Source: Polaromonas sp. UBA5171 (GTDB taxonomy: Bacteria > Pseudomonadota > Gammaproteobacteria > Burkholderiales > Burkholderiaceae_C). From it: DNA of 64,000 nucleotides. Within the stretch, counting starts at the first letter, position 1. The number at the start of each line of letters is the position of its first letter. Under the pieces are notes generated by a model. It worked only from the letters and a program-made list of their open reading frames with translations, did no database searches and had not been told where the DNA came from. The stretch spans positions 7,676-71,675 of the forward strand of contig DHWX01000125.1 in the NCBI GenBank assembly GCA_002413395.1, in the 5' to 3' direction. This document shows positions 7,249-58,937 of the stretch, one piece after another. Made by a program: the position numbers and the translations under genes.

Positions 7249-8354
7249 CCCATTTAATTTCTTCGGTGGAAGACATCGTGGCCGACATTCAGGCCGGCCG
7301 CATGGTCATCCTCGTCGATGAGGAAGACCGCGAAAACGAAGGCGATCTGATACTCGCGGCAGACCATGTGACGCCCGAAGCCATCAACTTCATGGCCCGC
7401 TTTGGCCGTGGCCTGATTTGCCTGACGCTCACCCGCGAACGTTGTGAACGCCTGCAATTGCCGCCCATGACGCTGCGCAATGGCGACAAGAAAGGCACCG
7501 CCTTCACCGTATCCATTGAAGCCGCCGAAGGCGTGACCACCGGCATTTCGGCAGCCGACCGCGCCCGCACGGTGCAGGCGGCTGTGGCCAAAAACGCCCT
7601 GGTCAGCGACCTGGTGCAGCCCGGCCATATCTTCCCCCTGCAAGCCGTCGATGGCGGCGTGCTGATGCGCGCTGGCCACACCGAAGCGGGCTGCGATCTG
7701 GCAGGCATGGCGGGCTGTTCACCGGCTGCCGTGATTTGCGAAATCATGAAGGACGACGGCACGATGGCCCGTCTGCCTGATTTGCAGGTGTTTGCCGCTG
7801 AGCACGGCCTGAAGATCGGAACGATTGCCGACCTGATCGCGCACCGCAGCCGCAACGAGTCGCTGATCGAAAAAATTGGCAGCCGCCCGCTGCAAACGGC
7901 GTTCGGGGACTTCACCGCTCACGCGTTCAGGGACAAACCCGGTCAGGGGCTGCATCTGGCGCTGGTCATGGGGCAATGGTCGGCCGACCAGACCGTGGCG
8001 GCCCGCGTGCACGAGCCGCTGTCGGTGCTGGACGTGCTGGAAACCAACCGCGCCATGCATGCCTGGAGCCTGGACCAGAGCCTCAAGCACATCGCCGATG
8101 CAGGCCAGGGCGTGGCGGTGCTGCTCAATTGCGGTGAAAGCGCGGCGCAGTTGCTGGCGCAGTTTGAGGGCACCGCGCGCGCCGCCCACGGCCCCGAGCG
8201 GGGCCGCATGGACTTGCGCAGCTACGGCGTCGGCGCGCAGATTTTGCGCCAGTGTGGCGTGCACAAAATGAACCTGATGGGCAATCCGCGCCGCATGCCC
8301 AGCATGACCGGCTACGGCCTGGAAATCGTTGGCTACATCACAAAAAACAATTAA
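7245..8354 (+). CDS. ribBA: 3,4-dihydroxy-2-butanone-4-phosphate synthase fused to a GTP cyclohydrolase II-like domain (the domain looks degenerate, RibBX-type)
   Basis: 369-aa ORF. The N-terminal half has the DHBP synthase motifs [13 protein letters not shown] and HTEAG. The C-terminal half aligns by eye to RibA but lacks the three zinc-binding cysteines ([23 protein letters not shown]). Confidence 0.9.
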
Positions 8355-9418: not shown

Positions 9419-10615
9419 GTGAAAATTGCCCAGCGGGCCCGGCGGATTGAGCCGTTTTATGTCATGGAAGTTGCCAAGGCCGCAGCTGCCCTGGCGCGGG
9501 AAGTAGCCCATACTGCCTCGCCCATGATCTTTCTGAACATCGGCGAGCCCGACTTCACCGCGCCGCCGCTGGTGCAGCAAGCCGCCAGCCGCGCCATCGA
9601 GCAAGGCAACACGCAATACACCCAGGCCACCGGCCTGCCCGCTCTGCGTGAATGCATCAGCCAGTGGTACGCCACGCGCTTTGGCGCACAGGTGGCACCT
9701 GGCCGCATCATCATCACGGCGGGGGCCTCTGGCGCACTGCAGCTTGCCTGTCTGGCCCTGATTGAGGCGGGTGATGAAATCCTGATGCCCGACCCGAGCT
9801 ATCCGTGCAACCGGCATTTTGTCAGCGCGGCGGAAGGCAGCGCAGTGCTGATCCCGACCACGGCCGATGAACGCTTTCAGCTCACCCGCGAAAAGGTGGA
9901 GGCAGCGTGGAACCCTCAAACACGCGGCGTGTTGCTGGCGTCGCCCTCCAACCCGACGGGAACCTCGATCGCGCCGGAGGAGTTGCAGCGCATTCACGAA
10001 TTCGTGCGCAGCCGGGGCGGCATCACGCTGATTGACGAAATCTACCTGGGCCTGAGTTATGAAGAGCACTTCGGACATTCAGCGCTGGCCATGCCGGGCG
10101 AACTGGGCCAAAGCGTCATCAGCATCAACAGCTTCAGCAAATATTTCAACATGACGGGCTGGCGCCTGGGCTGGCTGGTGGTGCCCGAAGCGCTGGTGCC
10201 GGTGATTGAGCGGATTGCGCAAAACCTGTTTATCTGCGCCAGCACGGTGGCGCAGCACGCCGCGCTGGCCTGCTTTGAGCCTGCCAGCCTGCTGGAGTAC
10301 GAGCGTCGGCGCGCCGAGTTCAAGGCACGCCGCGACTACTTCATTCCCGAGCTCAATCGCCTGGGCCTGAACGTGCCTGTGATGCCAGACGGCGCGTTCT
10401 ACGCCTACGCCGACTGCACCCAGGCCGCAGCGCGTCTGGGCGTCAGCGGCAGCTGGGACTTCGCCTTTGAACTGATGCAGCGCGCCCATCTGGCCGTGAC
10501 ACCGGGACGCGATTTCGGGCAGGCCGCACCGGAACAATTTGTGCGCTTTTCCACCGCCAGTTCCATGGAACATTTACGGGAAGCAGTGGCGCGGCTGGAG
10601 TCCGTACTTGAATAA
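9419..10615 (+). CDS. PLP-dependent aminotransferase (class I/II, aspartate/aromatic type)
   Basis: 398-aa ORF with a GTG start. The PLP-lysine motif is SFSKYFNMTGWRLGW. Confidence 0.85.
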   Translation: MKIAQRARRIEPFYVMEVAKAAAALAREVAHTASPMIFLNIGEPDFTAPPLVQQAASRAIEQGNTQYTQATGLPALRECISQWYATRFGAQVAPGRIIITAGASGALQLACLALIEAGDEILMPDPSYPCNRHFVSAAEGSAVLIPTTADERFQLTREKVEAAWNPQTRGVLLASPSNPTGTSIAPEELQRIHEFVRSRGGITLIDEIYLGLSYEEHFGHSALAMPGELGQSVISINSFSKYFNMTGWRLGWLVVPEALVPVIERIAQNLFICASTVAQHAALACFEPASLLEYERRRAEFKARRDYFIPELNRLGLNVPVMPDGAFYAYADCTQAAARLGVSGSWDFAFELMQRAHLAVTPGRDFGQAAPEQFVRFSTASSMEHLREAVARLESVLE

Positions 10616-10616
10616 C

Positions 10617-11144
10617 ATGACCCCCACGCTTGCCGCTTCGCCTGCTGCGCTGCCCCCCGAGGGAGCTAATTTTTCTGAAGGCGGCCCGTCGGAAAATTTC
10701 TTGCCGTCCGCGGCTTCTGCAAAAAGCGACTTCAGTTGGCCGGTGCGGGTGTATTGGGAAGACACCGATGCAGGTGGCATTGTTTTTTATGCCAATTACC
10801 TTAAATTTTTTGAACGTTCACGCACCGAATGGCTCAGATCACTGGGCATTGAGCAACAGCGTTTAAAGGCAAGCGCGGGCGGCCTGTTCGTGGTGATTGA
10901 CAGCCGCATTCGCTACCACCGCCCGGCCCGCCTTGACGATGAACTGATTGTTACCGCGAGCCTGGTCGAAACAGGCGGTGCATCCATGATAATCAAACAG
11001 CAGGCGCTACTAAAAACAGAGCAGATAAACACGGGAGCGGCAACACTGCTGTGCCAAGGCACAATCCGGATTGGCTGGGTCAATGCCTCCAGCTGGCAAC
11101 CCGCGCGTATTCCCGCCTGCATTCTTGACCGCTTAAAAACTTGA
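10617..11144 (+). CDS. ybgC: Tol-Pal-associated acyl-CoA thioesterase YbgC
   Basis: ORF 10539-11144. ATG 10617 lies just after the upstream stop. It has the 4HBT hot-dog motif VYWEDTDAGGIVFYANYLKFFE and sits directly upstream of tolQ. Confidence 0.85.
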   Translation: MTPTLAASPAALPPEGANFSEGGPSENFLPSAASAKSDFSWPVRVYWEDTDAGGIVFYANYLKFFERSRTEWLRSLGIEQQRLKASAGGLFVVIDSRIRYHRPARLDDELIVTASLVETGGASMIIKQQALLKTEQINTGAATLLCQGTIRIGWVNASSWQPARIPACILDRLKT

Positions 11145-21299: not shown

Positions 21300-22373
21300 A
21301 TGCGTAAAAAATCCTCCCCTTCAGCTGATTCCTGGCATCCCCGCCATATAGCCGTGGTGGGTGCCGGCATTGCCGGCATTGCTTGCGCGCGCACCCTGAC
21401 GCAGGCGGGTCACCACGTGACGATATTCGAGAAAAGCCACTCGGTCGGCGGCCGCATGGCAACGCGGCAAACCGAGTTTGGCGGTTTTGATCACGGCACC
21501 CAGTATTTCACCGTTCGTGATGCGCGCTTTGAAAAGGCGCTGGCAACGGCCTCGGGGCTGGTGCGGCCCTGGAGCGCCAACACGGTACGCATCCTGGATG
21601 AAGCCGGCCGTGTGGTGGCATCGGCACCGCCGCCCAGCGAGGCGCACTGGGTCGCCACGCCAGGCATGAATGCGCTGGTGCGCCAATGGGCCGCACCGCT
21701 GGAGGCTGCGGGCAGCCTGACGCTGCAAACCGAAGTCAGCCGCATCGAGCCCGACAAACTGCACCCGGAACGCTGGCAACTGCAAACGGAAGGCCCGGGT
21801 GCTGACAACCGCGTGTATTCCGGTTATGACGCCGTGTTGCTGGCCATGCCCTCACCCCAGGCGCTGGCGTTGCTGCTCAGCTCGCAGCAAGGCAAGACAC
21901 TGAGGGCAGACCTTGGCCGCGTGAGCGTAGCTCCCTGCTGGACCCTGATGCTGGCGTTTCCGCAAGCCGTGCAGCCCACGCTGGCGCACCTGGGCCCCCA
22001 GTGGAACGCTGCACGCAGCACCCACCACCGCATTGCCTGGCTGGCGCGCGAATCGTCCAAGCCCGGCCGTGAGCCAATTGAGCGCTGGACCGTTCAGGCC
22101 AGCACCGAATGGTCGCAACGCCATCTTGAAGACGATGCCGAGCGCGTCACGGCCAAGCTGCTCAAGGCTTTCACCGAAGTCACCGGCATCCGCGCGGAGC
22201 CTCCCTACGCAGTGGCATACCGTTGGCGTTATGCCCAAACCACCGAACCCCTTGGTAAAACCCACCTCTGGGACCCGAAATCCAGAATCGGTGCCTGCGG
22301 CGACTGGTGTCTGGGCCACCGCGTGGAAGACGGTTTTATCTCGGGTCTGGAAATGGCTCTGGCGATTCTTTAA
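21300..22373 (+). CDS. NAD(P)/FAD-dependent oxidoreductase (renalase/amine-oxidase-like)
   Basis: 357-aa ORF with the dinucleotide-binding motif VVGAGIAGIACA...E...GGR. Confidence 0.8.
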   Translation: MRKKSSPSADSWHPRHIAVVGAGIAGIACARTLTQAGHHVTIFEKSHSVGGRMATRQTEFGGFDHGTQYFTVRDARFEKALATASGLVRPWSANTVRILDEAGRVVASAPPPSEAHWVATPGMNALVRQWAAPLEAAGSLTLQTEVSRIEPDKLHPERWQLQTEGPGADNRVYSGYDAVLLAMPSPQALALLLSSQQGKTLRADLGRVSVAPCWTLMLAFPQAVQPTLAHLGPQWNAARSTHHRIAWLARESSKPGREPIERWTVQASTEWSQRHLEDDAERVTAKLLKAFTEVTGIRAEPPYAVAYRWRYAQTTEPLGKTHLWDPKSRIGACGDWCLGHRVEDGFISGLEMALAIL

Positions 22374-22391
22374 CTGCGCGAAGTAACCGGC

Positions 22392-23402
22392 GTGGAAGCC
22401 ATTCCTTATAGGGGTCGCTTCGCTCCTTCTCCAACCGGCCCGCTGCATGCAGGTTCGCTGGTCGCGGCACTGGCGAGCTGGCTTGATGCGCACGTCCACG
22501 ACGGCCAGTGGCTGGTGCGTCTGGAAGACGTGGACACGCCGCGCTGCCTCCCCGGTGCGGACCAAACCATCCTCGCGCAATTGGCCGACTGCGGCCTGCG
22601 GCCCGACGAACCGCCGGTTTATCAGACACCGCGCGGCGTGCTGTACCAGCAGGCGCTGGATCAACTCGCGGCTGACGGTTGGGCCTACCCCTGCGGCTGC
22701 ACTCGGCAAGACATCGAACGGGCGCTGGCCGCCTCAGGGCAGCTCAAGCCGCGCCATGCCGAGCTGGTGTACCCGGGGACCTGTCGTGACGGACTGCATG
22801 GCCAGAGCGCGCGTGCCTGGCGTTTTTTTACCGAAAAATACGAAAAAAATCGGGTTTCAGCCGGGATACTACAAACACATTCTGCTGTTCAATCAGCAAT
22901 GCATGGCACGCCGTCTGCAATGACTGGCAAGCACCTGATAGCGTGGCACGACCGACGGCTGGGAAACCAGACGCAGCATGTCAGCCGGGACGTGGGCGAT
23001 TTTGTTCTCAGGCGCGCTGACGGTTTCTGGGCCTACCAGTTGGCCGTGGTGGTGGACGATGCCGCGCAAGGCATCACGCACGTTGTGCGCGGTGAAGACC
23101 TGGCCGACAACACCGCACGGCAAATCCTGCTGCAAAATGCGCTCGGTCTGCCGACACCGCAGTATCTGCATGTGCCGCTGGTGCTGGGCAGCAACGGCGA
23201 AAAGCTTTCCAAGCAAAACGGCGCGCAGGCGCTCGACACCTCACGCCCGCTGGCAGCTCTGAACCAGGCCGCCGCAATGCTGGGTCTGCCCGCTCAAGCA
23301 GGATCCGTCCCTGTTGCGCTGGCGGCATGGCTCATGCAGTGGCACAACCTCTGGGCAAGCCCCCGCCACATGCCCATCACGGCACCGGAAGCGCCTGGGT
23401 AA
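22392..23402 (+). CDS. gluQ: tRNA glutamyl-Q(34) synthetase GluQRS
   Basis: 336-aa ORF with a GTG start. It has [15 protein letters not shown] (HIGH-type motif) and KLSKQ (KMSKS-type motif). It is a truncated GluRS paralog with no anticodon-binding domain. Confidence 0.88.
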
Positions 23403-28472: not shown

Positions 28473-28485
28473 AGAGTTAGCTGGC

Positions 28486-28651
28486 TCGTAGCGGTAGCGC
28501 CGGGCCGACCCAAGCAGGTTCAGCCCCTTCGGAGGGAAGCGCAGTACACGAAGTGACAAGCGTGGGGGCCCGCTTCGCCGCCGGGGCGTTCCAAAGCGAA
28601 GTAGCCCCCTCGGGGAGCAGAGAGCTACACAAAGTGAGCGAACGTGGGGGC
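28486..28651 (-). repeat. ~80-nt GC-rich structured repeat, two tandem units filling the guaB-guaA spacer
   Basis: Unit 28571-28651 is CGCTTCGCCGCCGGGGCGTTCCAAAGCGAAGTAGCCCCCTCGGGGAGCAGAGAGCTACACAAAGTGAGCGAACGTGGGGGC. A more diverged unit lies at 28486-28569. Related copies are at 34298, 44729, 48017 and 58807. Confidence 0.85.
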
Positions 28652-28659
28652 ACCATCTA

Positions 28660-30129
28660 TTATTCTGCCCGGTAGTTCGGCGCTTCCTTGGTGATCTGCA
28701 CGTCATGGACATGGCTTTCGCGGATGCCGGCGCTGGTGATCTCGACAAACTCGGCCTTGTTGCGCATGTCTTCAATGGTGGCGCAGCCGCAATAACCCAT
28801 GCTGGCCCGCAAGCCGCCAGCCATCTGGTAAACGATGGTGACCATCGAGCCCTTGTAGGGAACGCGGCCCTCAATGCCTTCAGGCACCAGCTTGTCGGCA
28901 TTCGGGTTGCCGGTACTCGACTCCTGAAAGTAGCGGTCGGCACTGCCCTGCTGCATGGCTCCGATGCTGCCCATGCCGCGGTAGCTCTTATAGCTTCGGC
29001 CCTGGTACAAAATGACTTCGCCGGGCGCCTCTTCGGTGCCGGCAAACATGCCGCCCATCATCACGGTGCTGGCACCGGCGGCGATAGCCTTGGCAATGTC
29101 GCCGCTGTAGCGAACGCCACCGTCGGCAATCAGCGGAACGCCGCTGCCACGCAGGGCCATTGCGACACTGTCAATCGCCATAATCTGCGGCACCCCCACG
29201 CCCGCGACGATGCGGGTGGTGCAGATACTGCCTGGGCCAATGCCAACTTTTACTGCGTCGGCCCCGGCCTCTACCAGCGCCAATGCGGCGGCACCGGTGG
29301 CAATATTGCCGCCTATCACGTCGATCTGCGGATAATTCTTCTTGACCCAGCGCACACGCTCAATGACGCCATGGCTGTGGCCATGGGCCGTATCAACCAC
29401 GATGGCATCCACGCCAGCCCGGACCAGCGCTTCGACGCGCTCTTCCGTCCCTTCGCCAACGCCGACCGCGGCACCCACGCGCAGGCGGCCCGAGGCGTCG
29501 CGTGCGGCATTGGGAAAATTGGTTTGCTTGGTAATGTCCTTGACCGTGATCAGACCTTTGAGTTCAAAGTCGTCGTTGACCACCAGCACGCGTTCGAGCT
29601 TGTATTTGTTGAGCAGGGCCTTGGCTTCAGCGGCAGAAGTGCCCTCCTTGACTGTGATCAGTTTTTCGCGCGGCGTCATGATCTGGTGAGCCTTGACGTC
29701 GTAACGGGTTTCAAAGCGCAGGTCGCGACTGGTCACGATGCCTACCACTTTGCCACCGTCACACACCGGAAAACCAGAGATGCCGAGTTGCTCGGACAGC
29801 TCAAGAATCTGCAACACGGTGTGCTCCGGCGTGATGACCACGGGATCGCGGACCACGCCTGACTCGTAGCGCTTGACCTTGGCCACCTGGGCAGCCTGCT
29901 GCTGCGGTGTCAGATTTTTATGAATGATGCCAATGCCGCCTTCCTGGGCGATGGCAATCGCCAGCCGACCTTCGGTCACCGTATCCATGGCGGCCGATAC
30001 AAGCGGCAGGTTCAACTGAATATTTCGGGAAAACTGGGTGGAGAGCGAGGCGTCCTTGGGCAGGACCTGGGAGAACGCTGGCACCAATAACACGTCGTCG
30101 AAGGTGAGCGCTTTGCCGAGTAGGCGCAT
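28660..30129 (-). CDS. guaB: IMP dehydrogenase
   Basis: ORF 28660-30225. The start is ATG 30129 ([17 protein letters not shown]). It has a CBS pair and the catalytic loop [11 protein letters not shown]. Confidence 0.95.
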
Positions 30130-34297: not shown

Positions 34298-34378
34298 CGT
34301 GCGCAGCATAGGGCCGTCTCAAGCAAGCACAGCCCCCTCGAGGGACCGCCCAGCACACCAAATAACAAGCGCGGGGAC
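34298..34378 (-). repeat. ~80-nt GC-rich structured repeat, copy in the typA-DMT spacer
   Basis: ...GTGCGCAGCATAGGGCCGTCTCAAGCAAGCACAGCCCCCTCGAGGGACCGCCCAGCACACCAAATAACAAGCGCGGGGA aligns by eye with the guaBA unit. It ends 4 nt from the typA stop. The flank 34255-34297 may be a degenerate partial unit. Confidence 0.65.
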
Positions 34379-34381
34379 AAG

Positions 34382-36205
34382 TTAACGGCCCGCACGCTTG
34401 CGCTCATGCTCTTTCAGGTAGCGCTTGCGCAGCCGGATGGATTTTGGCGTGATTTCAACCAGCTCATCGTCTTCAATGAACTCGACCGCGTATTCCAGAC
34501 TGAGTTGAATCGGCGGCGTGATCTTGATCGCGTCTTCCTTGCCGCTGACGCGGAAGTTGGTGAGCTGCTTCATGCGCACGGCGTTGACTACCAGATCGTT
34601 GTCGCGGCTGTGAATGCCGACGATCATGCCTTCATAAACCGGATCTCCCGCCTTGACAAACATGCGGCCGCGATCATCGAGCTTGCCCAGCGCGTAGGTG
34701 ACGATTTCACCATCATCCATGCTGATCAGCACCCCCGACTTGCGGCTTTCAATCTCGCCCTTGTAAGCCTCGTAGCCGTCAAAGATGTTGCTGGCCAGAC
34801 CGGTGCCACGCGTCAGGTTCAAAAATTCATTCTGGAAACCAATCAGCGCGCGCGCGGGGATGCGGTATTCGAGGCGGGTGCGGCCACGACCGTCCGGTTC
34901 CATGTTGAGCAGCTCGCCCTTGCGCAAACCCAGCGCCTGCATCACGCCGCCCTGGTGCTCGTCTTCCACATCCACCGTCAGCAGCTCGATCGGCTCATGG
35001 CGTTCGCCATTGACTTCCTTGAACACCACGCGAGGCTTGGAAACGGCCAGTTCGTAACCTTCGCGCCGCATGTTTTCCAGCAGGATGGTCAGGTGCAATT
35101 CACCCCGTCCCGACACCTCGTAAATGCCTTCTTCGTCGGTATCGCGCACGCGCAGGGCCACATTGGCCTGCAGCTCCTTGTCAAGGCGGTCACGCAACTG
35201 GCGGCTGGTGACAAACTTGCCCTCGCGGCCGGCCAGCGGCGAGTTGTTGACGCAAAAATTCATGGTCAGCGTTGGCTCGTCAATCTTCAGCATCGGCAGC
35301 GGAACCGGGTTGAGCGGGTCGGTCAGCGTGACGCCAATGTTGACCTGCTCGATCCCGCTGATCAAAACGATCTCGCCCGGTCCTGCCTCGGTAGTTGCCA
35401 CACGTTCCAGACCATCAAATGTCAGGATTTGCTGGACCTTGGCCTTGCTCGATTTGCCGTCCGGACCTTCCATGACGAGCACTTCCTGGTTGGTCTTGAT
35501 CGTTCCCTGGGTGATACGGCCCACGCCGATACGGCCCACGTAGGTCGAGTAGTCGAGTGAGCTGATCTGCAGTTGCAATGGCGCCGCCGGATCGCCAGTG
35601 TTGGCAGGCACATGCTTGAGCACCGTGTCAAACAGCGGCGAAAGATCCTTGCCCCACTGCTCGCCGGGCTCACCTTCTTCCAGCGTCGCCCAGCCGTTCA
35701 GGCCGGAGGCATACACCACGGGAAAATCAAGTTGTTCTTCGGTGGCGCCCAGCTTGTCAAACAGGTCAAAGGCGGCATTGATGACATAGTCTGGCCTGGC
35801 CCCGGGACGGTCCACCTTGTTGACCACCACGATCGGCTTGAGACCCAGCGCCAGCGCTTTTTTTGTCACAAATCGGGTTTGCGGCATCGGGCCTTCGACC
35901 GCGTCAATCAGCAGCATCACGCCATCGACCATCGACAGCGCGCGCTCAACCTCACCGCCAAAATCGGCGTGGCCGGGCGTATCGACAATATTGATGTGTG
36001 TGCCCTGCCAGGTTACGGCACAATTTTTGGCCAGAATGGTGATGCCACGCTCTTTTTCAAGGTCGTTGTTGTCCATCACGCGCTCGGCAACTTTTTCGTT
36101 GCTGCGGAAGGTGCCCGACTGGCGCAGCAGCATATCCACCAGGGTGGTTTTCCCATGGTCAACGTGGGCGATGATGGCGATGTTGCGAATTTGTTTGTGA
36201 CTCAT
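34382..36205 (-). CDS. typA: Translational GTPase TypA/BipA
   Basis: 607-aa ORF with [21 protein letters not shown] and NKVD motifs. Confidence 0.96.
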
Positions 36206-43122: not shown

Positions 43123-44811
43123 TCAACCCTGCGTCACCAACTCCCGGGTATAGGGATGACGTGGTGTATCCAGCACTTCCTGCACTGCGCCCGCCTCGAC
43201 CACCTCACCATCCTTGATGACCATCACTTCATGCGCCATGGCACGAATCACATCAACGTCGTGGGTGATGAGAAGATAGCTCAAACCACGCTCGCGCTGC
43301 AGGCGCTGCAGCAGCGCCAGCACCTGCTTCTGGATAGTCACATCCAGCGCGCTGGTTGGCTCATCGAGCACCAGCAGGCTGGGGTTGATGATGAGCGCGC
43401 GCGCAATCGCCAGGCGCTGGCGTTGGCCGCCCGAGAATTCATGCGGATAGCGTTGCAGCAAGCCGGGGAACTGCGCCTCGGTCATGCCCACATCCTCCAG
43501 GGATTCCAGCGCGCGGCACCGCCTTTGCGGCTGGCTCATGGCAGGCTCATGTACTCGCAAACCCTCTTCGACAATTGCTTCCACTGTCATACGGGGTGAC
43601 AGCGAAGAAAATGGGTCCTGAAACACCACCTGGACCGCCCGGCGAATGGTCTTGTTGCGCGCTGCCTGCCTGCTCCAGGATTGGCCTGCTGCCTGCAATT
43701 GCCCGGAAAAGGGAAGCAAGCCCAGGCAGGCCAGCGCCAAAGTGGACTTGCCGGAACCCGATTCGCCGATCACGCCAAGGGTCTTGCCCGGAAAAATTTG
43801 AAAATTCGCATCCTGAACAGCAATGAACTCACCGCGTTTGAACCAGCCCCGGACGCCGGGAACGGCCACCGGGTAGGTCACACGGATGTGGCTGGCCTGC
43901 ATAACCGGTAAAGCATCCGCCGCCGCAGGCGCAACGTCAACGACATCACGCACTGGTTTGCTGTCGATGAGCCTGCGGGTGTAGGGATGCTGTGGAACGG
44001 CGAACACGTCCGCTACCGACCCCTGCTCGACGATATGACCGTCTTCCATGACCGCAACGCGGTCCGCGAAGCGGCGCACCAGATTAAGGTCATGCGTGAT
44101 CATGAGCACGGCCATGCCATTTTGCCGCTGCAACGCGCTAAGCAGGTCCAGTATCTGGCCGCGCAGGGTGACGTCCAGCGCGGTGGTTGGTTCGTCAGCC
44201 AGCAGCAGTTTGGGCTGGCACGCCAGCGCCATCGCGATCATGGCGCGCTGGCGCTGACCCCCCGAGAGCTGGTGGGGAAAGGAGCGGGCTCGCCGCCCGG
44301 CCTCCAGGATACCGGTATTTGCTAGTAATTTAATAGCTACTTGTACAGATTTTTCCTGAGTCAGACCGCGTTTTAGCTGTACAACTTCAGCAATCTGGTC
44401 GCCCACGCTGAACAAGGGGTTCAGCGCCGTCATGGGTTCCTGAAAAATCATGGCAATGTCGCGACCCCGAATGCCGCGCAAGGCGCGCTCCGGCATGGAA
44501 AGCAGCTCACTTGCGCCCTCTGGCCCGGTAAACAGCGCCTGACCGCTGACCTCGGCGTTTTGCACCAGCCGCAGCAGGCTCAGGGCCGTCACGGTCTTTC
44601 CCGAGCCTGACTCTCCCACCAGCGCCAGCCTTTCCCCGGGCGCGATGAAAAAATCAATGCCACGCACGACTTCCTTACCCGCAAAGGAAACCCGTAAATT
44701 TTTCACCTCCAGCAGCAACGAAGATGCACGTTCCGCCAACAGGCCGTCCTTAGGCGGAACAACCCCCTCGGGGGGCAGCGTAGTACGCGAAGCGACAAGC
44801 GTGGGGGCCAT
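43123..44811 (-). CDS. ABC transporter ATP-binding protein with duplicated ATPase domains (Dpp/Opp, YejF-like)
   Basis: It has two Walker A motifs (GESGSGKT and GESGSGKS) and two LSGGQRQR signatures. ATG 44811 has an AAGGAGAG ribosome-binding site inside the end of the HPr gene. Residues 2-28 are encoded by the ~80-nt repeat. Confidence 0.85.
   Translation of the reverse strand: MAPTLVASRTTLPPEGVVPPKDGLLAERASSLLLEVKNLRVSFAGKEVVRGIDFFIAPGERLALVGESGSGKTVTALSLLRLVQNAEVSGQALFTGPEGASELLSMPERALRGIRGRDIAMIFQEPMTALNPLFSVGDQIAEVVQLKRGLTQEKSVQVAIKLLANTGILEAGRRARSFPHQLSGGQRQRAMIAMALACQPKLLLADEPTTALDVTLRGQILDLLSALQRQNGMAVLMITHDLNLVRRFADRVAVMEDGHIVEQGSVADVFAVPQHPYTRRLIDSKPVRDVVDVAPAAADALPVMQASHIRVTYPVAVPGVRGWFKRGEFIAVQDANFQIFPGKTLGVIGESGSGKSTLALACLGLLPFSGQLQAAGQSWSRQAARNKTIRRAVQVVFQDPFSSLSPRMTVEAIVEEGLRVHEPAMSQPQRRCRALESLEDVGMTEAQFPGLLQRYPHEFSGGQRQRLAIARALIINPSLLVLDEPTSALDVTIQKQVLALLQRLQRERGLSYLLITHDVDVIRAMAHEVMVIKDGEVVEAGAVQEVLDTPRHPYTRELVTQG
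44729..44808 (-). repeat. ~80-nt GC-rich structured repeat, copy forming the 5' coding end of the ABC ATPase gene
   Basis: CGTTCCGCCAACAGGCCGTCCTTAGGCGGAACAACCCCCTCGGGGGGCAGCGTAGTACGCGAAGCGACAAGCGTGGGGGC. It is translated as APTLVASRTTLPPEGVVPPKDGLLAER. Confidence 0.8.
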
Positions 44812-44815
44812 ATAT

Positions 44816-45085
44816 TTACTCTCCTTCGCCGAACTTGTCAGCGATGAGCGCCAGCAAGGCCTCCATCGCGGTCTGTTCGTCAGCGCCGCTGGTTTCGACT
44901 TCAACGGTGCTGCCAAGCCCGGCTGCAAGCATCATCACACCCATGATGCTTTTTGCATTCACGCGTCGCTCGCCCTTGCTGATCCAGACTTCGCAGGCAA
45001 AGCTGCCGGCGAGTTTGGTGATTTTGGCCGATGCCCGGGCGTGCAGGCCCAGCTTATTGTTGATGTTCGTGCTGGTCTTGATCAT
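44816..45085 (-). CDS. ptsH: HPr family phosphocarrier protein (NPr-like)
   Basis: 89-aa ORF with the active-site motif NKLGLHARAS. Confidence 0.9.
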   Translation of the reverse strand: MIKTSTNINNKLGLHARASAKITKLAGSFACEVWISKGERRVNAKSIMGVMMLAAGLGSTVEVETSGADEQTAMEALLALIADKFGEGE

Positions 45086-46485: not shown

Positions 46486-47742
46486 ATGAGGCCCATGAAC
46501 TCTCTCCAAGGTATTCGCATTCTCGATTTGTCCCGCGTTCTCGCGGGCCCGTGGTGTACCCAGACGCTGGCCGACCTCGGCGCCGACGTCATCAAGATTG
46601 AGCGCCCCGGCACGGGAGACGATACCCGTACCTGGGGTCCACCGTTTTTGAAGGACGACCAGGGCGCGGAAACACAGGAAGCTGCCTATTACCTGGGCAC
46701 CAACCGCAACAAGCGTTCGGTCACCTGTGACATTGCCCAGCCAGCCGGGCAGGCGTTGATCCGCGAACTGGCCATGCATTGCGACGTATTTGTCGAAAAC
46801 TTCAAGGTTGGCGACATGGCGCGCTACGGGCTCGACTATGACTCAATCAAGATCATCAACCCGCGCCTGGTGTATTGTTCGGTCACCGGCTTTGGCCAGA
46901 ACGGCCCCTATGCCGAGCGTGCCGGCTACGACTACGCGATTCAGGGCATGGGCGGGTTGATGAGCGTGACCGGCGAGCGCGATGATTTGGGCGGCGGGCC
47001 GCAAAAAGTTGGCGTGGCCGTGGCGGACTTGATGACCGGCATGTATGCCACGGTGGCGATACTCGCCGCGCTGCGCCACGCCGAAAAAACCGGCATTGGC
47101 CAGCAGGTGGATATGGCGCTGCTCGACACCCAGGTGGCAATGCTCGCCAACCTGGGGGCCAACTATCTGGTGAGCGGCAAGGTGCCGCAGCGCGTCGGCA
47201 ACGCGCACCAGAACATCGTGCCTTATCAGGTATTCGAGGTCGCGCCTGCGCTTGACGGCAGCAAGGACCACATCATCCTGGCGGTGGGCAATGACTCGCA
47301 ATATGTGAAATTCTGCAAGGTCGCCAATATTCCCGAACTGGGCGTGAACCCGCTGTTTGCCAAAAACCGCGACCGCGTGCTCAACCGCGACCAGCTGGTT
47401 CCCATCCTCGAAGCCGTGATGAAAACCCGCGGCAAGGCCGACTGGCTGGCTGTGCTGGAAGCCGCCAAGGTGCCATGTGGCGCCATCAACAACCTGGCCG
47501 AGGTGTTTGCCGACCCGCAAATCGAGGCGCGTGACATGGTGACGCACTGGCAGCACCCCGCCACTGGTGATCTGCGGCTGGTGGCCAGTCCGATCAAGCT
47601 CAGCGCAACGCCGGTACGCACGCCTGGCCGGGGGGGGCAGCCGCCACCACTGCTGGGCCAGCACACAGAGGAAGTATTGCGTGAAGTGATGAATTACTCC
47701 GACGCGCAGTTGGCGGAGCTGAAACACAAGGAGGTCATCTGA
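46486..47742 (+). CDS. CaiB/BaiF family (class III) CoA-transferase
   Basis: ATG 46486. It shows the pattern GIRILDLSRVLAGPWCTQTLADLGADVIKIE. Confidence 0.88.
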   Translation: MRPMNSLQGIRILDLSRVLAGPWCTQTLADLGADVIKIERPGTGDDTRTWGPPFLKDDQGAETQEAAYYLGTNRNKRSVTCDIAQPAGQALIRELAMHCDVFVENFKVGDMARYGLDYDSIKIINPRLVYCSVTGFGQNGPYAERAGYDYAIQGMGGLMSVTGERDDLGGGPQKVGVAVADLMTGMYATVAILAALRHAEKTGIGQQVDMALLDTQVAMLANLGANYLVSGKVPQRVGNAHQNIVPYQVFEVAPALDGSKDHIILAVGNDSQYVKFCKVANIPELGVNPLFAKNRDRVLNRDQLVPILEAVMKTRGKADWLAVLEAAKVPCGAINNLAEVFADPQIEARDMVTHWQHPATGDLRLVASPIKLSATPVRTPGRGGQPPPLLGQHTEEVLREVMNYSDAQLAELKHKEVI

Positions 47743-48554
47743 TGGCGAACTTTGTCTTGGTGCATGGCGCCTGGCATGGGGGCTGGTGCTGGCAACGCGT
47801 GATGGCCGCGTTGCAACAGCAAGGACATCGGGTGCATGCGGTCACGCTGACCGGTCTGGGCGAGCGCGCTCACCTGCTGTCGCCCGCCATCACGCTGGAC
47901 ACGCACATCAATGACGTAATCAATCTCATCGAGGCGGAAGAACTCAGCGACGTGATTTTGGCCGTGCATTCCTACGCGGGCATGATTGGCACCGCCGTCG
48001 CCGACCGCCTGGATGACCCCGCGCTTGCCGCTTCAAGTCCTGCGCTGTCCCCCGAGGGGGCTATTTCGCTTTGGGGCGGCCCGGCGGCGAAACGTCAGCG
48101 CCTGAAGCATCTGGTTTATGTCGATGCCGTCGTGCCAAAACCCGGCGAAAGCTGGAGCAGCACGCAGTCCAGCGCCACGCAGCAGCAGCGCATGGCCGCA
48201 GCGCAGATTTCGTCCAACTTCAGCTTTCCGCCGCCGGATCCCGAGGTGTTTGGATTGCATGGCACAGACCGCGAATGGGTCCAGCGCCGCCAGACGCCAC
48301 ACCCCGGCAATACCTATCCTGCGCCGCTCAGCTTTGATGTGCAGCGCGTTGCCGCCGTGCCGCGCACTTTCATCAGTTGCAACCAGCCCGCGCTGTCGAC
48401 GATTGAGCCCAGCCGCTTGCGCGTAAAAGATCCGAAATTCTGGGGCGGCGCATGGATGGCGAATTCTCGCGTGGTGGAAATCATGACTGGCCATGACCCG
48501 ATGATCAGCGAACCTGCGGCGTTGACCCGCATTTTGCTGGATTGCGCTGGCTAA
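47742..48554 (+). CDS. Alpha/beta hydrolase (methylesterase-like) carrying an in-frame 26-codon repeat insertion
   Basis: 270-aa ORF. It has FVLVHGAWHGGWCW and the nucleophile elbow HSYAG. The segment DDPALAASSPALSPEGAISLWGGPAAKR is encoded by the repeat copy at 48017-48094. Confidence 0.82.
   Translation: MANFVLVHGAWHGGWCWQRVMAALQQQGHRVHAVTLTGLGERAHLLSPAITLDTHINDVINLIEAEELSDVILAVHSYAGMIGTAVADRLDDPALAASSPALSPEGAISLWGGPAAKRQRLKHLVYVDAVVPKPGESWSSTQSSATQQQRMAAAQISSNFSFPPPDPEVFGLHGTDREWVQRRQTPHPGNTYPAPLSFDVQRVAAVPRTFISCNQPALSTIEPSRLRVKDPKFWGGAWMANSRVVEIMTGHDPMISEPAALTRILLDCAG
48017..48094 (+). repeat. ~80-nt GC-rich structured repeat, copy inserted in frame inside the hydrolase CDS
   Basis: The reverse complement CGTTTCGCCGCCGGGCCGCCCCAAAGCGAAATAGCCCCCTCGGGGGACAGCGCAGGACTTGAAGCGGCAAGCGCGGGGT aligns along its whole length with unit 28571-28651. 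Confidence 0.8.
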
Positions 48555-58125: not shown

Positions 58126-58800
58126 ATGCGCATTTTGATCGCCGAAGATGACCAGGTTCTGGCCGATGGCCTGTTGCGCACCCTGCGCGCGTCGGGCGCG
58201 GCGGCCGATCATGTGGCCAGCGGTGCCGAAGCTGACGCCGCCCTGCTGACCAATACCGGATTTGACTTGTTGATCCTCGACCTCGGTCTGCCGCGCATGC
58301 ACGGCCTGGAAGTGCTGAAACGGTTGCGTGCCCGGGGCTCGGCATTGCCGGTGCTGGTTCTTACTGCAGCCGACAGCGTTGAAGAACGCGTCAAGGGGCT
58401 GGATTATGGCGCTGACGACTACATGGCCAAGCCATTTTCCCTGCAGGAGCTCGAAGCGCGTGTGCGCGCGCTGGTGCGGCGTGGCATGGGCGGGGCCAGC
58501 AGCAACATCAAGCACGGCCCACTGGTGTATGACCAGGCCGGGCGCGTTGCCACCATCGACGGCCAGATGCTGGAGCTGTCGGCGCGCGAGCTGGGACTCC
58601 TCGAAGTGCTGCTGCAGCGCGCCGGGCGCCTGGTCAGCAAGGACCAATTGGTTGATCGCCTGTGCGAGTGGGGCGAAGAGGTCAGCAACAACGCCATTGA
58701 GGTGTACATCCACCGCCTGCGCAAAAAAATCGAAAAAGGCCCGATCCGGATTGCCACAGTGCGCGGGCTGGGCTACTGCCTTGAAAAAATCCCGAACTAG
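58126..58800 (+). CDS. OmpR/PhoB-family response regulator
   Basis: 224-aa ORF with a receiver domain (MRILIAEDD...DLLILDLGLP) and a Trans_reg_C domain (IEVYIHRLRKKI...TVRGLGY). Confidence 0.93.
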   Translation: MRILIAEDDQVLADGLLRTLRASGAAADHVASGAEADAALLTNTGFDLLILDLGLPRMHGLEVLKRLRARGSALPVLVLTAADSVEERVKGLDYGADDYMAKPFSLQELEARVRALVRRGMGGASSNIKHGPLVYDQAGRVATIDGQMLELSARELGLLEVLLQRAGRLVSKDQLVDRLCEWGEEVSNNAIEVYIHRLRKKIEKGPIRIATVRGLGYCLEKIPN

Positions 58801-58806
58801 TATGGG

Positions 58807-58923
58807 GCCGCCACGTTCACTTACTGCGTTTAGCGCTCTACCCCCCAAGGAGGCTGTGCTTGCTTGGGGCGGCGCGGCGCGGCGCACGATAGTTCCCACG
58901 CTGGCCGCTTCGTGTTCTTGACT
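58807..58923 (+). repeat. ~80-nt GC-rich structured repeat, one full unit and one partial unit in the response regulator-kinase spacer
   Basis: GCCGCCACGTTCACTTACTGCGTTTAGCGCTCTACCCCCCAAGGAGGCTGTGCTTGCTTGGGGCGGCGCGGCGCGGCGCACG occupies 58807-58888. A second CCCACGCTGGCCGCTTCGTGTTCTTGACT fragment lies at 58895-58923. Confidence 0.75.
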
Positions 58924-58937
58924 GGCACGCCCGCACC

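Follow-up and report, generated by a model that had tools for sequence, protein, structure and literature searches.

Beta-proteobacterial repeat elements in Polaromonas and relatives: anchoring at gene junctions, one reading frame inside genes and covarying hairpins

Introduction

Why should a GC-rich unit of about 80 nt stand behind one stop codon after another in a Polaromonas genome, and how can the same unit lie within a gene that remains open? The question is raised by a 64-kb stretch of the genome of Polaromonas sp. UBA5171 (contig DHWX01000125.1; hereafter the window, by which we mean the whole 64,000 nt that was analyzed), whose proteins are closest to Polaromonas and in which an initial annotation had described such units at five loci and recognized no named family. 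Judged by comparison of their sequences, these units belong to a family named in 2011, the Beta-proteobacterial repeat element (BRE). We describe here where BRE copies lie relative to genes, which reading frames they use and which parts of them covary, and we argue, with a probability of about 0.6, that BRE is a selfish repeat, non-autonomous and dependent on its hairpins, which is seen only where genes stay intact.

BRE was described by Hot et al. (2011, BMC Genomics 12:207; PMC3110155) as a repeat of about 90 bp, with a published length of 75 to 91 bp, in Bordetella and Comamonadaceae, Polaromonas sp. JS666 being the richest genome; the table of the Delihas 2011 review lists it, after Hot et al. 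2011, as an element of about 90 bp in the Beta-proteobacteria. According to the portions of the report by Hot et al. available to us, to which all statements on that report made here refer, BREs are usually intergenic, sometimes overlap the ends of open reading frames (ORFs) by a few bases, sometimes lie wholly within a coding sequence (CDS), and often occur in tandem in variable number; no function is assigned to them there. Our searches of the literature found nothing later on BRE beyond that report and the Delihas review, and found no Comamonadaceae repeat in the literature on REP and MITE elements, the name BRE having come to us by way of the Delihas table.

Results

Identity and spread of the repeat

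A profile built from the aligned window copies, with which the window was searched by nhmmer, returned seven full BRE units of 79 to 81 nt (E values of 1e-16 to 1e-20), together with one partial unit; comparison of orthologous junctions added one probable remnant. The five loci named by the initial annotation were all recovered, and the homology among them, which had been drawn by eye, proved real (E <=1e-16, with a published family matched); an independent repeat search of the window returned the same loci and the copy at 10620-10698, which had been missed. Five published Bordetella BREs, taken from the supplementary sequences of Hot et al., match the window profile over positions 2 to 81 (E values of 4e-11 to 2e-10, on the reverse strand as printed), and the window elements are therefore BRE copies. 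No Rfam family matches any unit, either at the gathering threshold or at E values up to 5.

The agreement with the published description (PMC3110155, within the portions referred to above) extends to length, to a GC content above the genome average (0.63 to 0.71 for the window units versus 0.60 for the window), to the taxa concerned, namely, Alcaligenaceae and Comamonadaceae with Polaromonas the richest, and to a distribution that is likewise mostly intergenic, with some overlap of ORF ends, some copies within CDSs and tandem arrays of variable number. Bordetella BREs differ in having long T or A runs, which are absent from the Comamonadaceae units, and in the stems of hairpins 1 and 3. The density of seven to nine copies in 64 kb is far above the 29 per Polaromonas genome given by Hot et al., whose count was made with a Bordetella query at >70% identity.

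The wider distribution was sampled with an exact 20-mer from the 5' end of the unit, one genome being taken per species, which yielded at least 120 loci, nearly all of them labelled Comamonadaceae or related Burkholderiales; the genera among the matches listed are Polaromonas, Rhodoferax, Variovorax, Curvibacter, Hydrogenophaga, Simplicispira, Ramlibacter and Giesbergeria. The listed loci hold 153 units, 147 of which were classified by context. One variant of the 5' module is overrepresented in this sample, some of its sites are orthologous rather than independent, and its genes were called with our own codon-usage caller trained on the window, whose start codons are uncertain. A contig labelled as a Candidatus Kapabacteria metagenome-assembled genome (L017, CALRQX020000020.1) carries a typical Comamonadaceae BRE, and given that BRE the contig is probably mis-binned. 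Just past the guaB stop codon at four loci (L134, L146, L162 and L126) stands a more distant BRE variant (ACCCCCAGGCTGCGCGCACTTCGTGTCGCTGCGCCACCCCCCTTGCAGGGGGC...), and the superfamily is therefore broader than the profile used here.

Orientation and anchoring at gene junctions

Seventy BRE blocks in the sample lie between co-oriented genes, 55 of them in sense and 15 in antisense orientation (binomial p=1.7e-6). All but two of the sense blocks (53 of 55) start within 10 nt past the upstream stop codon, versus 25.8 expected if blocks were spread evenly over these spacers. The median distance to the neighboring gene is 4 nt at the 5' end and 34 nt at the 3' end, and the stop codon touches or overlaps the first bases of the element in 21 cases. 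All seven full units of the window follow the local gene direction, the remnant being the only antisense copy, and the five units that come first in their spacers begin 4, 8, 3, 7 and 6 nt past a stop codon. The concordant orientation noted by the initial annotation therefore stands, with the family-wide bias behind it, and the anchoring that it gave as 4 to 8 nt was measured as 3 to 8 nt.

Antisense blocks are placed by the same end. In 7 of 15 cases no more than 10 nt separate their GCCCCC end from the start called for the opposite-strand gene. A CAT, which is a start codon seen from the strand of the element, is often visible 3 to 9 nt from that end, and CGTGGGGGC, as read on the strand of the gene, then falls at the Shine-Dalgarno site or the start codon. 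The 8 nt immediately 5' of the unit are rich in A and T in each of the four context classes (0.59 to 0.69 AT, versus 0.33 to 0.43 further out). Because this holds in every context, including intragenic copies of both orientations, the AT-rich flank is a property of a leader or target and not a by-product of stop codons. The type of leader, start-like or stop-like, showed only a weak association with the type of 3' module (chi-square p=0.053); a clear one would have indicated a leader carried along by the element.

Replication direction was rejected as the cause of orientation, the window units alternating +,-,-,-,-,+,+ with gene direction; Hot et al. (PMC3110155, in the portions available) likewise found BRE orientation unlinked to replication and rejected its control by replication direction.

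Orthologous junctions differ in the presence, number and orientation of units. The junction of the GluQRS-like gene (window 22373-22392), compared in five genomes, holds zero, one or two units in either orientation. One genome has two sense units (L080, 2405-2660), the upstream stop codon TAG sharing its G with the element, and three have antisense units (L076, 6840-6990; L035, 1215-1390; L084, 5290-5500), from whose GTG or GGGGG the GluQRS-like gene takes its start codon or its ribosome-binding position; these four carry full units, and at the window junction a 24-nt remnant remains.

At the guaB-guaA junction, a search of 56 metagenomic relatives found no clean empty site, none of these relatives being close enough. 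Several lineages carry other BRE variants there, beginning 4 to 6 nt past the stop codon. In most relatives (metagenomic junctions L123 to L202; for example, L177, L181, L185 and L124), the spacer measures 48 to 91 nt and contains a GC-rich hairpin with a T-run behind it, resembling a terminator or attenuator between the two genes. Five others (L127, L138, L141, L142 and L172) have spacers of 750 to 850 nt with an insertion of about 0.8 kb, which opens with repeated palindromic TCTGGCCAGAC-like motifs and may be an inserted gene with operator-like sites.

Reading frames across gene junctions

Directly ahead of the unit and in frame with it stands ATG, GTG or TTG, usually ATG, in 33 of 53 sense junction copies, and these start codons set the same frame as that used by intragenic copies. 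The ORF read in this frame is fused to the next gene in 11 of the 53, overlaps the next start codon with its stop codon (ATGA or TGATG) in 13 to 14, and ends within 15 nt of the next start in 14 to 16. Such bridging ORFs total 38 to 41, compared with 17 and 21 in the other two frames. Tandem periods are divisible by 3 in 11 of 13 cases, and tandem copy number varies.

These figures favor the idea that BRE is a selected translational coupler resembling MIRU, on which ribosomes would re-initiate at the ORF of the element, unwind it and so reach the downstream start. The window offers an example, the guaB-guaA ORF beginning 3 nt past the stop codon of guaB and ending 4 nt ahead of the ATG of guaA; the tandem periods in multiples of 3 and the precedent of MIRU itself point the same way. 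We nevertheless regard this explanation as rather unlikely. A start codon is missing from 20 of the 53 copies, and the ATG or GTG motif also precedes copies within CDSs, so that the motif may represent a target or a leader and not a start codon kept by selection. At 65 to 70% GC an open frame says little, and variation in the conserved core, judged by eye on the alignment of the window copies, is not concentrated at third codon positions. Antisense copies, and those between convergent genes, cannot work in this way.

Hairpins and covariation

BRE is a dispersed, non-coding repeat, and its unit is modular. A conserved 47-nt 5' module (GCCCCCACGCTTGYCRCTTCGYGTRCTGCGCTGCCCCCCGAGGGGGC), nearly invariant across the listed loci and holding a bulged hairpin and a central CCCCC/GGGGG hairpin, is joined to one of several 3' modules. 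The commonest of these folds into a hairpin whose loop (TTGGGGCGGCCCGGC) is constant and whose stem takes many forms, complementary within each subfamily; an alternative 3' module forms a different hairpin (CGCTGCGCCTGCGGCCCGGCAAAGCCGGTTCCGCGGCCC), and variants with extra nested hairpins also occur.

Covariation was tested on a gapless stack of 36 equal-length copies, with no structure-guided alignment. Standard pairs fill 90.4% of the cells versus 77.8% in shuffles, and the covariation score is 0.33 versus 0.11 (0 of 500 shuffles reach 0.33, and slid controls score 0.06 to 0.12). Double changes are found in 7 of 8 pairs of the 3' hairpin, which bears out the earlier remark that one arm of the unit keeps its complementarity while its sequence changes, and in 3 of 8 pairs of the 5' hairpin, which the initial annotation had not mentioned (for example, pair 16-22, with A-T in 16 copies and G-C in 16), where the bulged T is conserved. 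The outer GCCCCC/GGGGGC pairing is invariant, so that covariation neither supports nor refutes this bracket. Stem variants recur across genomes; compensation has therefore taken place between subfamilies and not locus by locus, which fits a structure needed for propagation.

Single copies fold no better than shuffled controls (z between -1.6 and +0.1), and their predicted structures are inconsistent; since there is no excess folding stability, it is on covariation, and not on energy, that the description of BRE as structured rests. Among mismatches in the stems, G-T (13) does not exceed A-C (31), and there is thus no wobble signal of the sense strand. A run of at least five T in the 8 nt past the central hairpin is found in about 10% of copies, irrespective of context, and the central hairpin of guaB-guaA unit 1, at 28628-28601, is the only terminator-like site, and a weak one, in the window copies scanned. 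An intrinsic terminator was rejected on these grounds: U-tracts are rare and show no context dependence, and one window unit qualifies weakly.

A broader proposal is that BRE acts in cis as an RNA element past the stop codon, serving 3'-end protection, processing or attenuation, or stalling terminating ribosomes. Many REPs of Escherichia coli reportedly lie within 15 nt of a stop codon, and those so placed are reported to stall terminating ribosomes (Liang, Rudd and Deutscher 2015, Mol Cell). The bias of 55 sense to 15 antisense blocks, the 53 of 55 that start close behind a stop codon, the covarying stems and the terminator-like window unit would all suit such a role, as would the hairpin and T-run that relatives have between guaB and guaA where the window has BREs. 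A Bordetella BRE also overlaps the detected small RNAs bprJ1 and bprJ2 (PMC3110155, portions available). Against it stand the folding energies, which equal those of shuffles, the lack of a G-T excess, the scarcity and context independence of U-tracts after the central hairpin, and the failure of any Rfam family to match. One third of the copies, moreover, lie within CDSs in both orientations, and antisense junction copies are anchored to start codons by the same end. The function at the RNA level that the initial annotation had suggested, whether 3'-end protection, processing or decoupling, thus gained no support from folding, wobble pairs, U-tracts or the intragenic and antisense copies, and we think it an improbable account of the family.

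Copies inside genes

Of the 147 classified units, 53 lie within long, high-scoring ORFs, and all 53 of these ORFs stay open. The hosts, named by eye from translations and without a domain search, include pyruvate dehydrogenase E1 (AceE), PurL, ThrC, biotin carboxylases and PutA, as well as a P-type ATPase, CobQ (with two inserts), PBP1C and an acyl-CoA synthetase. Each orientation uses one frame. Sense copies read GCC CCC ACG... (APTLVASRTALPPEGA...) in 22 of 23 cases and antisense copies read ...APSGGSAVREATSVGA in 28 of 30, the three exceptions all having an indel variant of the 5' module. The frames that are not used are open in many variants, in which they would encode Arg/Cys-rich peptides, and avoidance of stop codons therefore fails to explain the rule. 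It might come from selection at the peptide level for a bland Pro/Gly/Ala/Ser linker, or from a target motif, such as an RTG just 5' of the element, that is biased in codon phase in a genome with high third-position GC.

Two host genes were compared with orthologs lacking the insert. The alpha/beta-hydrolase of the window has 270 aa and most Polaromonas orthologs have 243, the extra 27 aa being the element; at the DNA level, one empty and two filled alleles differ by a clean insertion of 81 to 84 nt with no duplication. AlphaFold (shallow alignment, mean pLDDT of 60) predicts the hydrolase insert as a coil of low confidence, with a helix and a strand of the core on either side of it. In threonine synthase (ThrC), empty alleles encode 471 or 475 aa and filled ones 483 to 522 aa. 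The sequence ...ACG AAT GTK precedes the sense inserts, an antisense insert lies about two codons further along the same loop, and the subtype of the element at one and the same site differs between genomes.

Paralogous biotin carboxylase genes at two loci (L008, at about 2540, and L013, at about 7016) carry antisense BREs at the same protein position, directly preceding AT-rich codons for FY(F/L)MEMNT. The shared position may mean either that the site is targeted repeatedly or that the two proteins have a permissive loop in common.

Copies in the window

The positions of the window copies are collected in Table 1. Pfam searches of their neighbors confirmed the gene names given by the initial annotation (guaB, guaA, typA/BipA, EamA/DMT, HPr, ABC ATPase, response regulator and sensor kinase), and the hydrolase was confirmed from its homologues.

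Table 1. BRE units and associated features in the 64-kb window
Feature	Positions	Strand	Basis and context
BRE unit	10620..10698	+	nhmmer E=1.2e-19; 4 nt after TAA of aminotransferase gene (9419-10615)
Remnant of antisense BRE 5' end (probable)	22377..22400	-	18/24 bases match CGCGAAGCGACAAGCGTGGGGGCC
ORF of 59 codons through both tandem guaB-guaA units	28477..28656	-	Translation and frame analysis
BRE unit 2, tandem with unit 1, guaB-guaA spacer	28491..28569	-	3' hairpin degenerate
BRE unit 1, guaB-guaA spacer	28573..28651	-	5'-module variant, 1-nt indel
Diverged BRE unit, upstream of EamA transporter gene	34299..34378	-	3 nt past typA/BipA stop (34382-34384)
BRE unit, HPr-ABC ATPase	44730..44808	-	7 nt past HPr stop (44816-44818)
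BRE unit in alpha/beta-hydrolase gene (47742-48554)	48015..48093	+	In frame, adds 27 aa (DPALAASSPALSPEGAISLWGGPAAKR)
BRE unit, indel variant	58807..58887	+	6 nt past response-regulator stop (58798-58800)
Partial second BRE unit, 5' module only	58894..58924	+	nhmmer E=0.03

The guaB-guaA spacer of 187 nt is the one with two full units in tandem. On the minus strand, guaB ends in two consecutive in-frame stop codons, TAA TAG (28657-28662), followed by the ATG of the ORF that spans both units; unit 1 begins 8 nt past the first of these stops (TAA, 28660-28662). The ORF runs from its ATG at 28656-28654, 3 nt past the double stop, to a TAA at 28479-28477, and the ATG of guaA follows at 28472-28470. 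Behind the response regulator gene, an ATG at 58802-58804 opens an ORF of 38 codons across the full and the partial unit, which stops at a TGA 17 nt ahead of the GTG of the kinase gene (58938). The diverged unit behind typA/BipA has no start codon, and a TGA closes its element frame.

At two junctions the element frame continues into the next gene. Directly upstream of the unit behind the aminotransferase gene, an ATG (10617-10619) is in frame with the unit and with a 4HBT thioesterase ORF that ends at 11144 (Pfam), and an ATG (44811-44809) likewise precedes the unit behind HPr, where the frame of the element continues without a stop into the ORF of the ABC ATPase. The longest ABC ATPase and thioesterase ORFs (43123-44928 on the minus strand and 10539-11144 on the plus strand, respectively) extend through the element because BRE is open in frame. 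Codon-usage scoring and an ortholog suggest that the true starts of both genes are downstream of it. The start of the ABC ATPase itself is likely the TTG at 44718, 11 nt past the unit, in whose place the ortholog (L022) has an ATG right after its BRE unit. The remnant of Table 1 holds the GTG start (22392) of the GluQRS-like gene.

Unrelated to the repeats is a sub-threshold Rfam match to the Vibrio antisense RNA V_AS9 at 7348-7451 on the minus strand (39.9 bits versus a gathering threshold of 50; E=0.0018).

Discussion

The explanation that we favor treats BRE as an element that is, or recently was, mobile but would not move by its own means. Mobility is suggested by the hydrolase and ThrC alleles with and without an insert, by the differences at the junction of the GluQRS-like gene and by the varying tandem copy number. 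Its propagation would depend on its hairpins, probably in the form of folded single-stranded DNA recognized by a putative enzyme, and insertion would take place beside a short AT-rich sequence at the GCCCCC end. From the distribution of copies we infer a filter of selection, which would remove every copy that damages a gene and leave three kinds. The first would be sense copies right after stop codons in operons, half to three quarters of which open a small ORF at their edge; this ORF would cross the element and end at, or fuse with, the next start, so that downstream translation is preserved much as proposed for MIRU. The second would be antisense copies whose CGTGGGGGC end falls where the next gene has its Shine-Dalgarno site or start codon. 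The third would be copies inserted in frame in surface loops of proteins, with one frame per orientation and a Pro/Gly/Ala/Ser-rich linker as their product, which recalls RPE.

Several observations weigh against this explanation. No mobilizing enzyme was found: a phmmer search with the RayT protein of E. coli (MG1655), run on the ORFs of the window and of all loci in six frames, returned nothing below E=1, in a sample of about 1.1 Mb that was drawn from many genomes and is far too small to be decisive. No consistent target-site duplication was seen, the hydrolase site having none and the ThrC site imperfect repeats of 3 to 6 nt, and the element has no terminal inverted repeats, its ends not being complementary. 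The 5' module is near-identical across genera, which needs ongoing spread, gene conversion or strong constraint. The rule of a single frame, kept by 50 of 53 intragenic copies, is very strict for a filter of selection by itself; a phase-biased target motif or another mechanism could be contributing, and a very specific insertion mechanism, as the initial annotation had it, is possible. The bridging ORF is not universal, as the 20 sense junction copies lacking a start codon show. Finally, Table 3 and List S1 of Hot et al. (PMC3110155, portions available), taken at face value, place most Bordetella BREs opposite to their flanking genes.

A more adventurous reading, to which we give little credence, is that BRE is more than a tolerated selfish repeat, namely, a portable cassette for gene junctions that would spread in dependence on the reading frame. 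Its GCCCCC end would then carry or target stop, start and Shine-Dalgarno signals (TAG or ATG in sense, GTG and GGGGG in antisense), and insertion would be specific for codon phase in both orientations. Operon junctions would be rewired, and linker peptides added to essential enzymes, across the Comamonadaceae. A putative hairpin-recognizing enzyme would drive the spread, the variable stem of the 3' hairpin serving as a specificity code.

It is very improbable that the APTLVASRTALPPEGA... peptide is itself a functional module, selected for a role in host proteins. The strict single frame of sense copies within CDSs and the retention of inserts in housekeeping enzymes across species are what such a module would produce, but antisense copies are equally common and encode an unrelated peptide, most copies are intergenic, the length and sequence of inserts vary freely between orthologs, many orthologs have no insert, and the hydrolase insert is predicted as a disordered loop. 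The idea that the units resemble one another by chance, or through the composition of GC-rich DNA, can be dismissed: the 9-mer GCCCCCACG by itself is not enriched in the window, but full-length profile matches (E <=1e-16), more than 150 copies in other genomes and the match to a published family rule it out.

Read as a selfish repeat that persists where genes stay intact, BRE can be set beside other dispersed repeats, and the likeness that the initial annotation saw to REP/BIME and to the palindromic elements of Rickettsia (RPE) is apt in that BRE is a comparable dispersed family of hairpin-forming repeats. RPE is listed in the Delihas 2011 review, which cites Ogata et al. 2000 for repeats fused inside coding sequences. 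Like BRE, RPE is a palindromic repeat of about 100 nt that lies in frame in housekeeping genes, which it does not inactivate, and that is also found between genes. The same behavior is seen in the in-frame insertion of BRE in conserved, open proteins whose orthologs lack it (the hydrolase and ThrC). The likeness drawn here is one of behavior: RPE belongs to a clade of Alphaproteobacteria, whereas BRE uses both orientations in CDSs, with one frame for each, and is prominently anchored at gene junctions.

MIRU (Supply et al. 1997) carries small ORFs that overlap, at their two ends, the stop and start codons of the neighboring genes, and it is thought to keep translational coupling. MIRU and BRE share GC-rich units of 40 to 100 nt in operon spacers, co-orientation with genes, variable tandem number and small ORFs, and the founding MIRU copy lies in the operon of a two-component system, as does one BRE of the window. 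BRE differs in having the bridging ORF in about half to three quarters of its junction copies and in occurring also in antisense and within CDSs; MIRU has tetranucleotide direct repeats, whereas BRE has no consistent duplication, and the host phyla are unrelated.

REP/BIME and REPIN elements resemble BRE in being high in copy number, GC-rich, hairpin-forming, mosaic or modular and present inside operons. A REP, however, is a single palindrome of 20 to 40 nt with a GTAG or CGTC tag, strictly extragenic and linked to RAYT, the gene of a Y1 HUH transposase that the repeats flank, whereas a BRE has 79 to 81 nt and three hairpins; one of its ends reads GCCCCCACG..., the other is a variable stem, and neither GTAG nor CGTC is conserved there. 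Membership of REP/BIME was rejected on both counts, the unit being neither a single tagged palindrome nor extragenic (53 of 147 copies are within ORFs, with the hydrolase and ThrC verified). An assignment to MITEs was likewise rejected, the ends of BRE not being complementary and empty and filled sites showing no consistent target-site duplication.

The repeat is thus already known, having been named in 2011 and hardly studied since. Its anchoring by one end, the 3.7:1 bias toward sense orientation in operons, the use of one frame per orientation in some 50 insertions into housekeeping enzymes and the compensation between subfamilies in two hairpins seem to be unreported; anchoring, orientation, frame, covariation and the alternative 3' modules appear undescribed in the portions of Hot et al. 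(PMC3110155) on which we draw. In BRE-rich genomes, the tendency of BREs to lengthen predicted ORFs, as they do for the ABC ATPase and the thioesterase of the window, confuses the annotation of start codons. If the patterns described here hold genome-wide, BRE would provide a second large and tractable system, beside RPE, for the question of how selfish palindromes enter proteins, and Polaromonas and Variovorax would offer a free-living, culturable model of how repeats coexist with translational coupling in operons.

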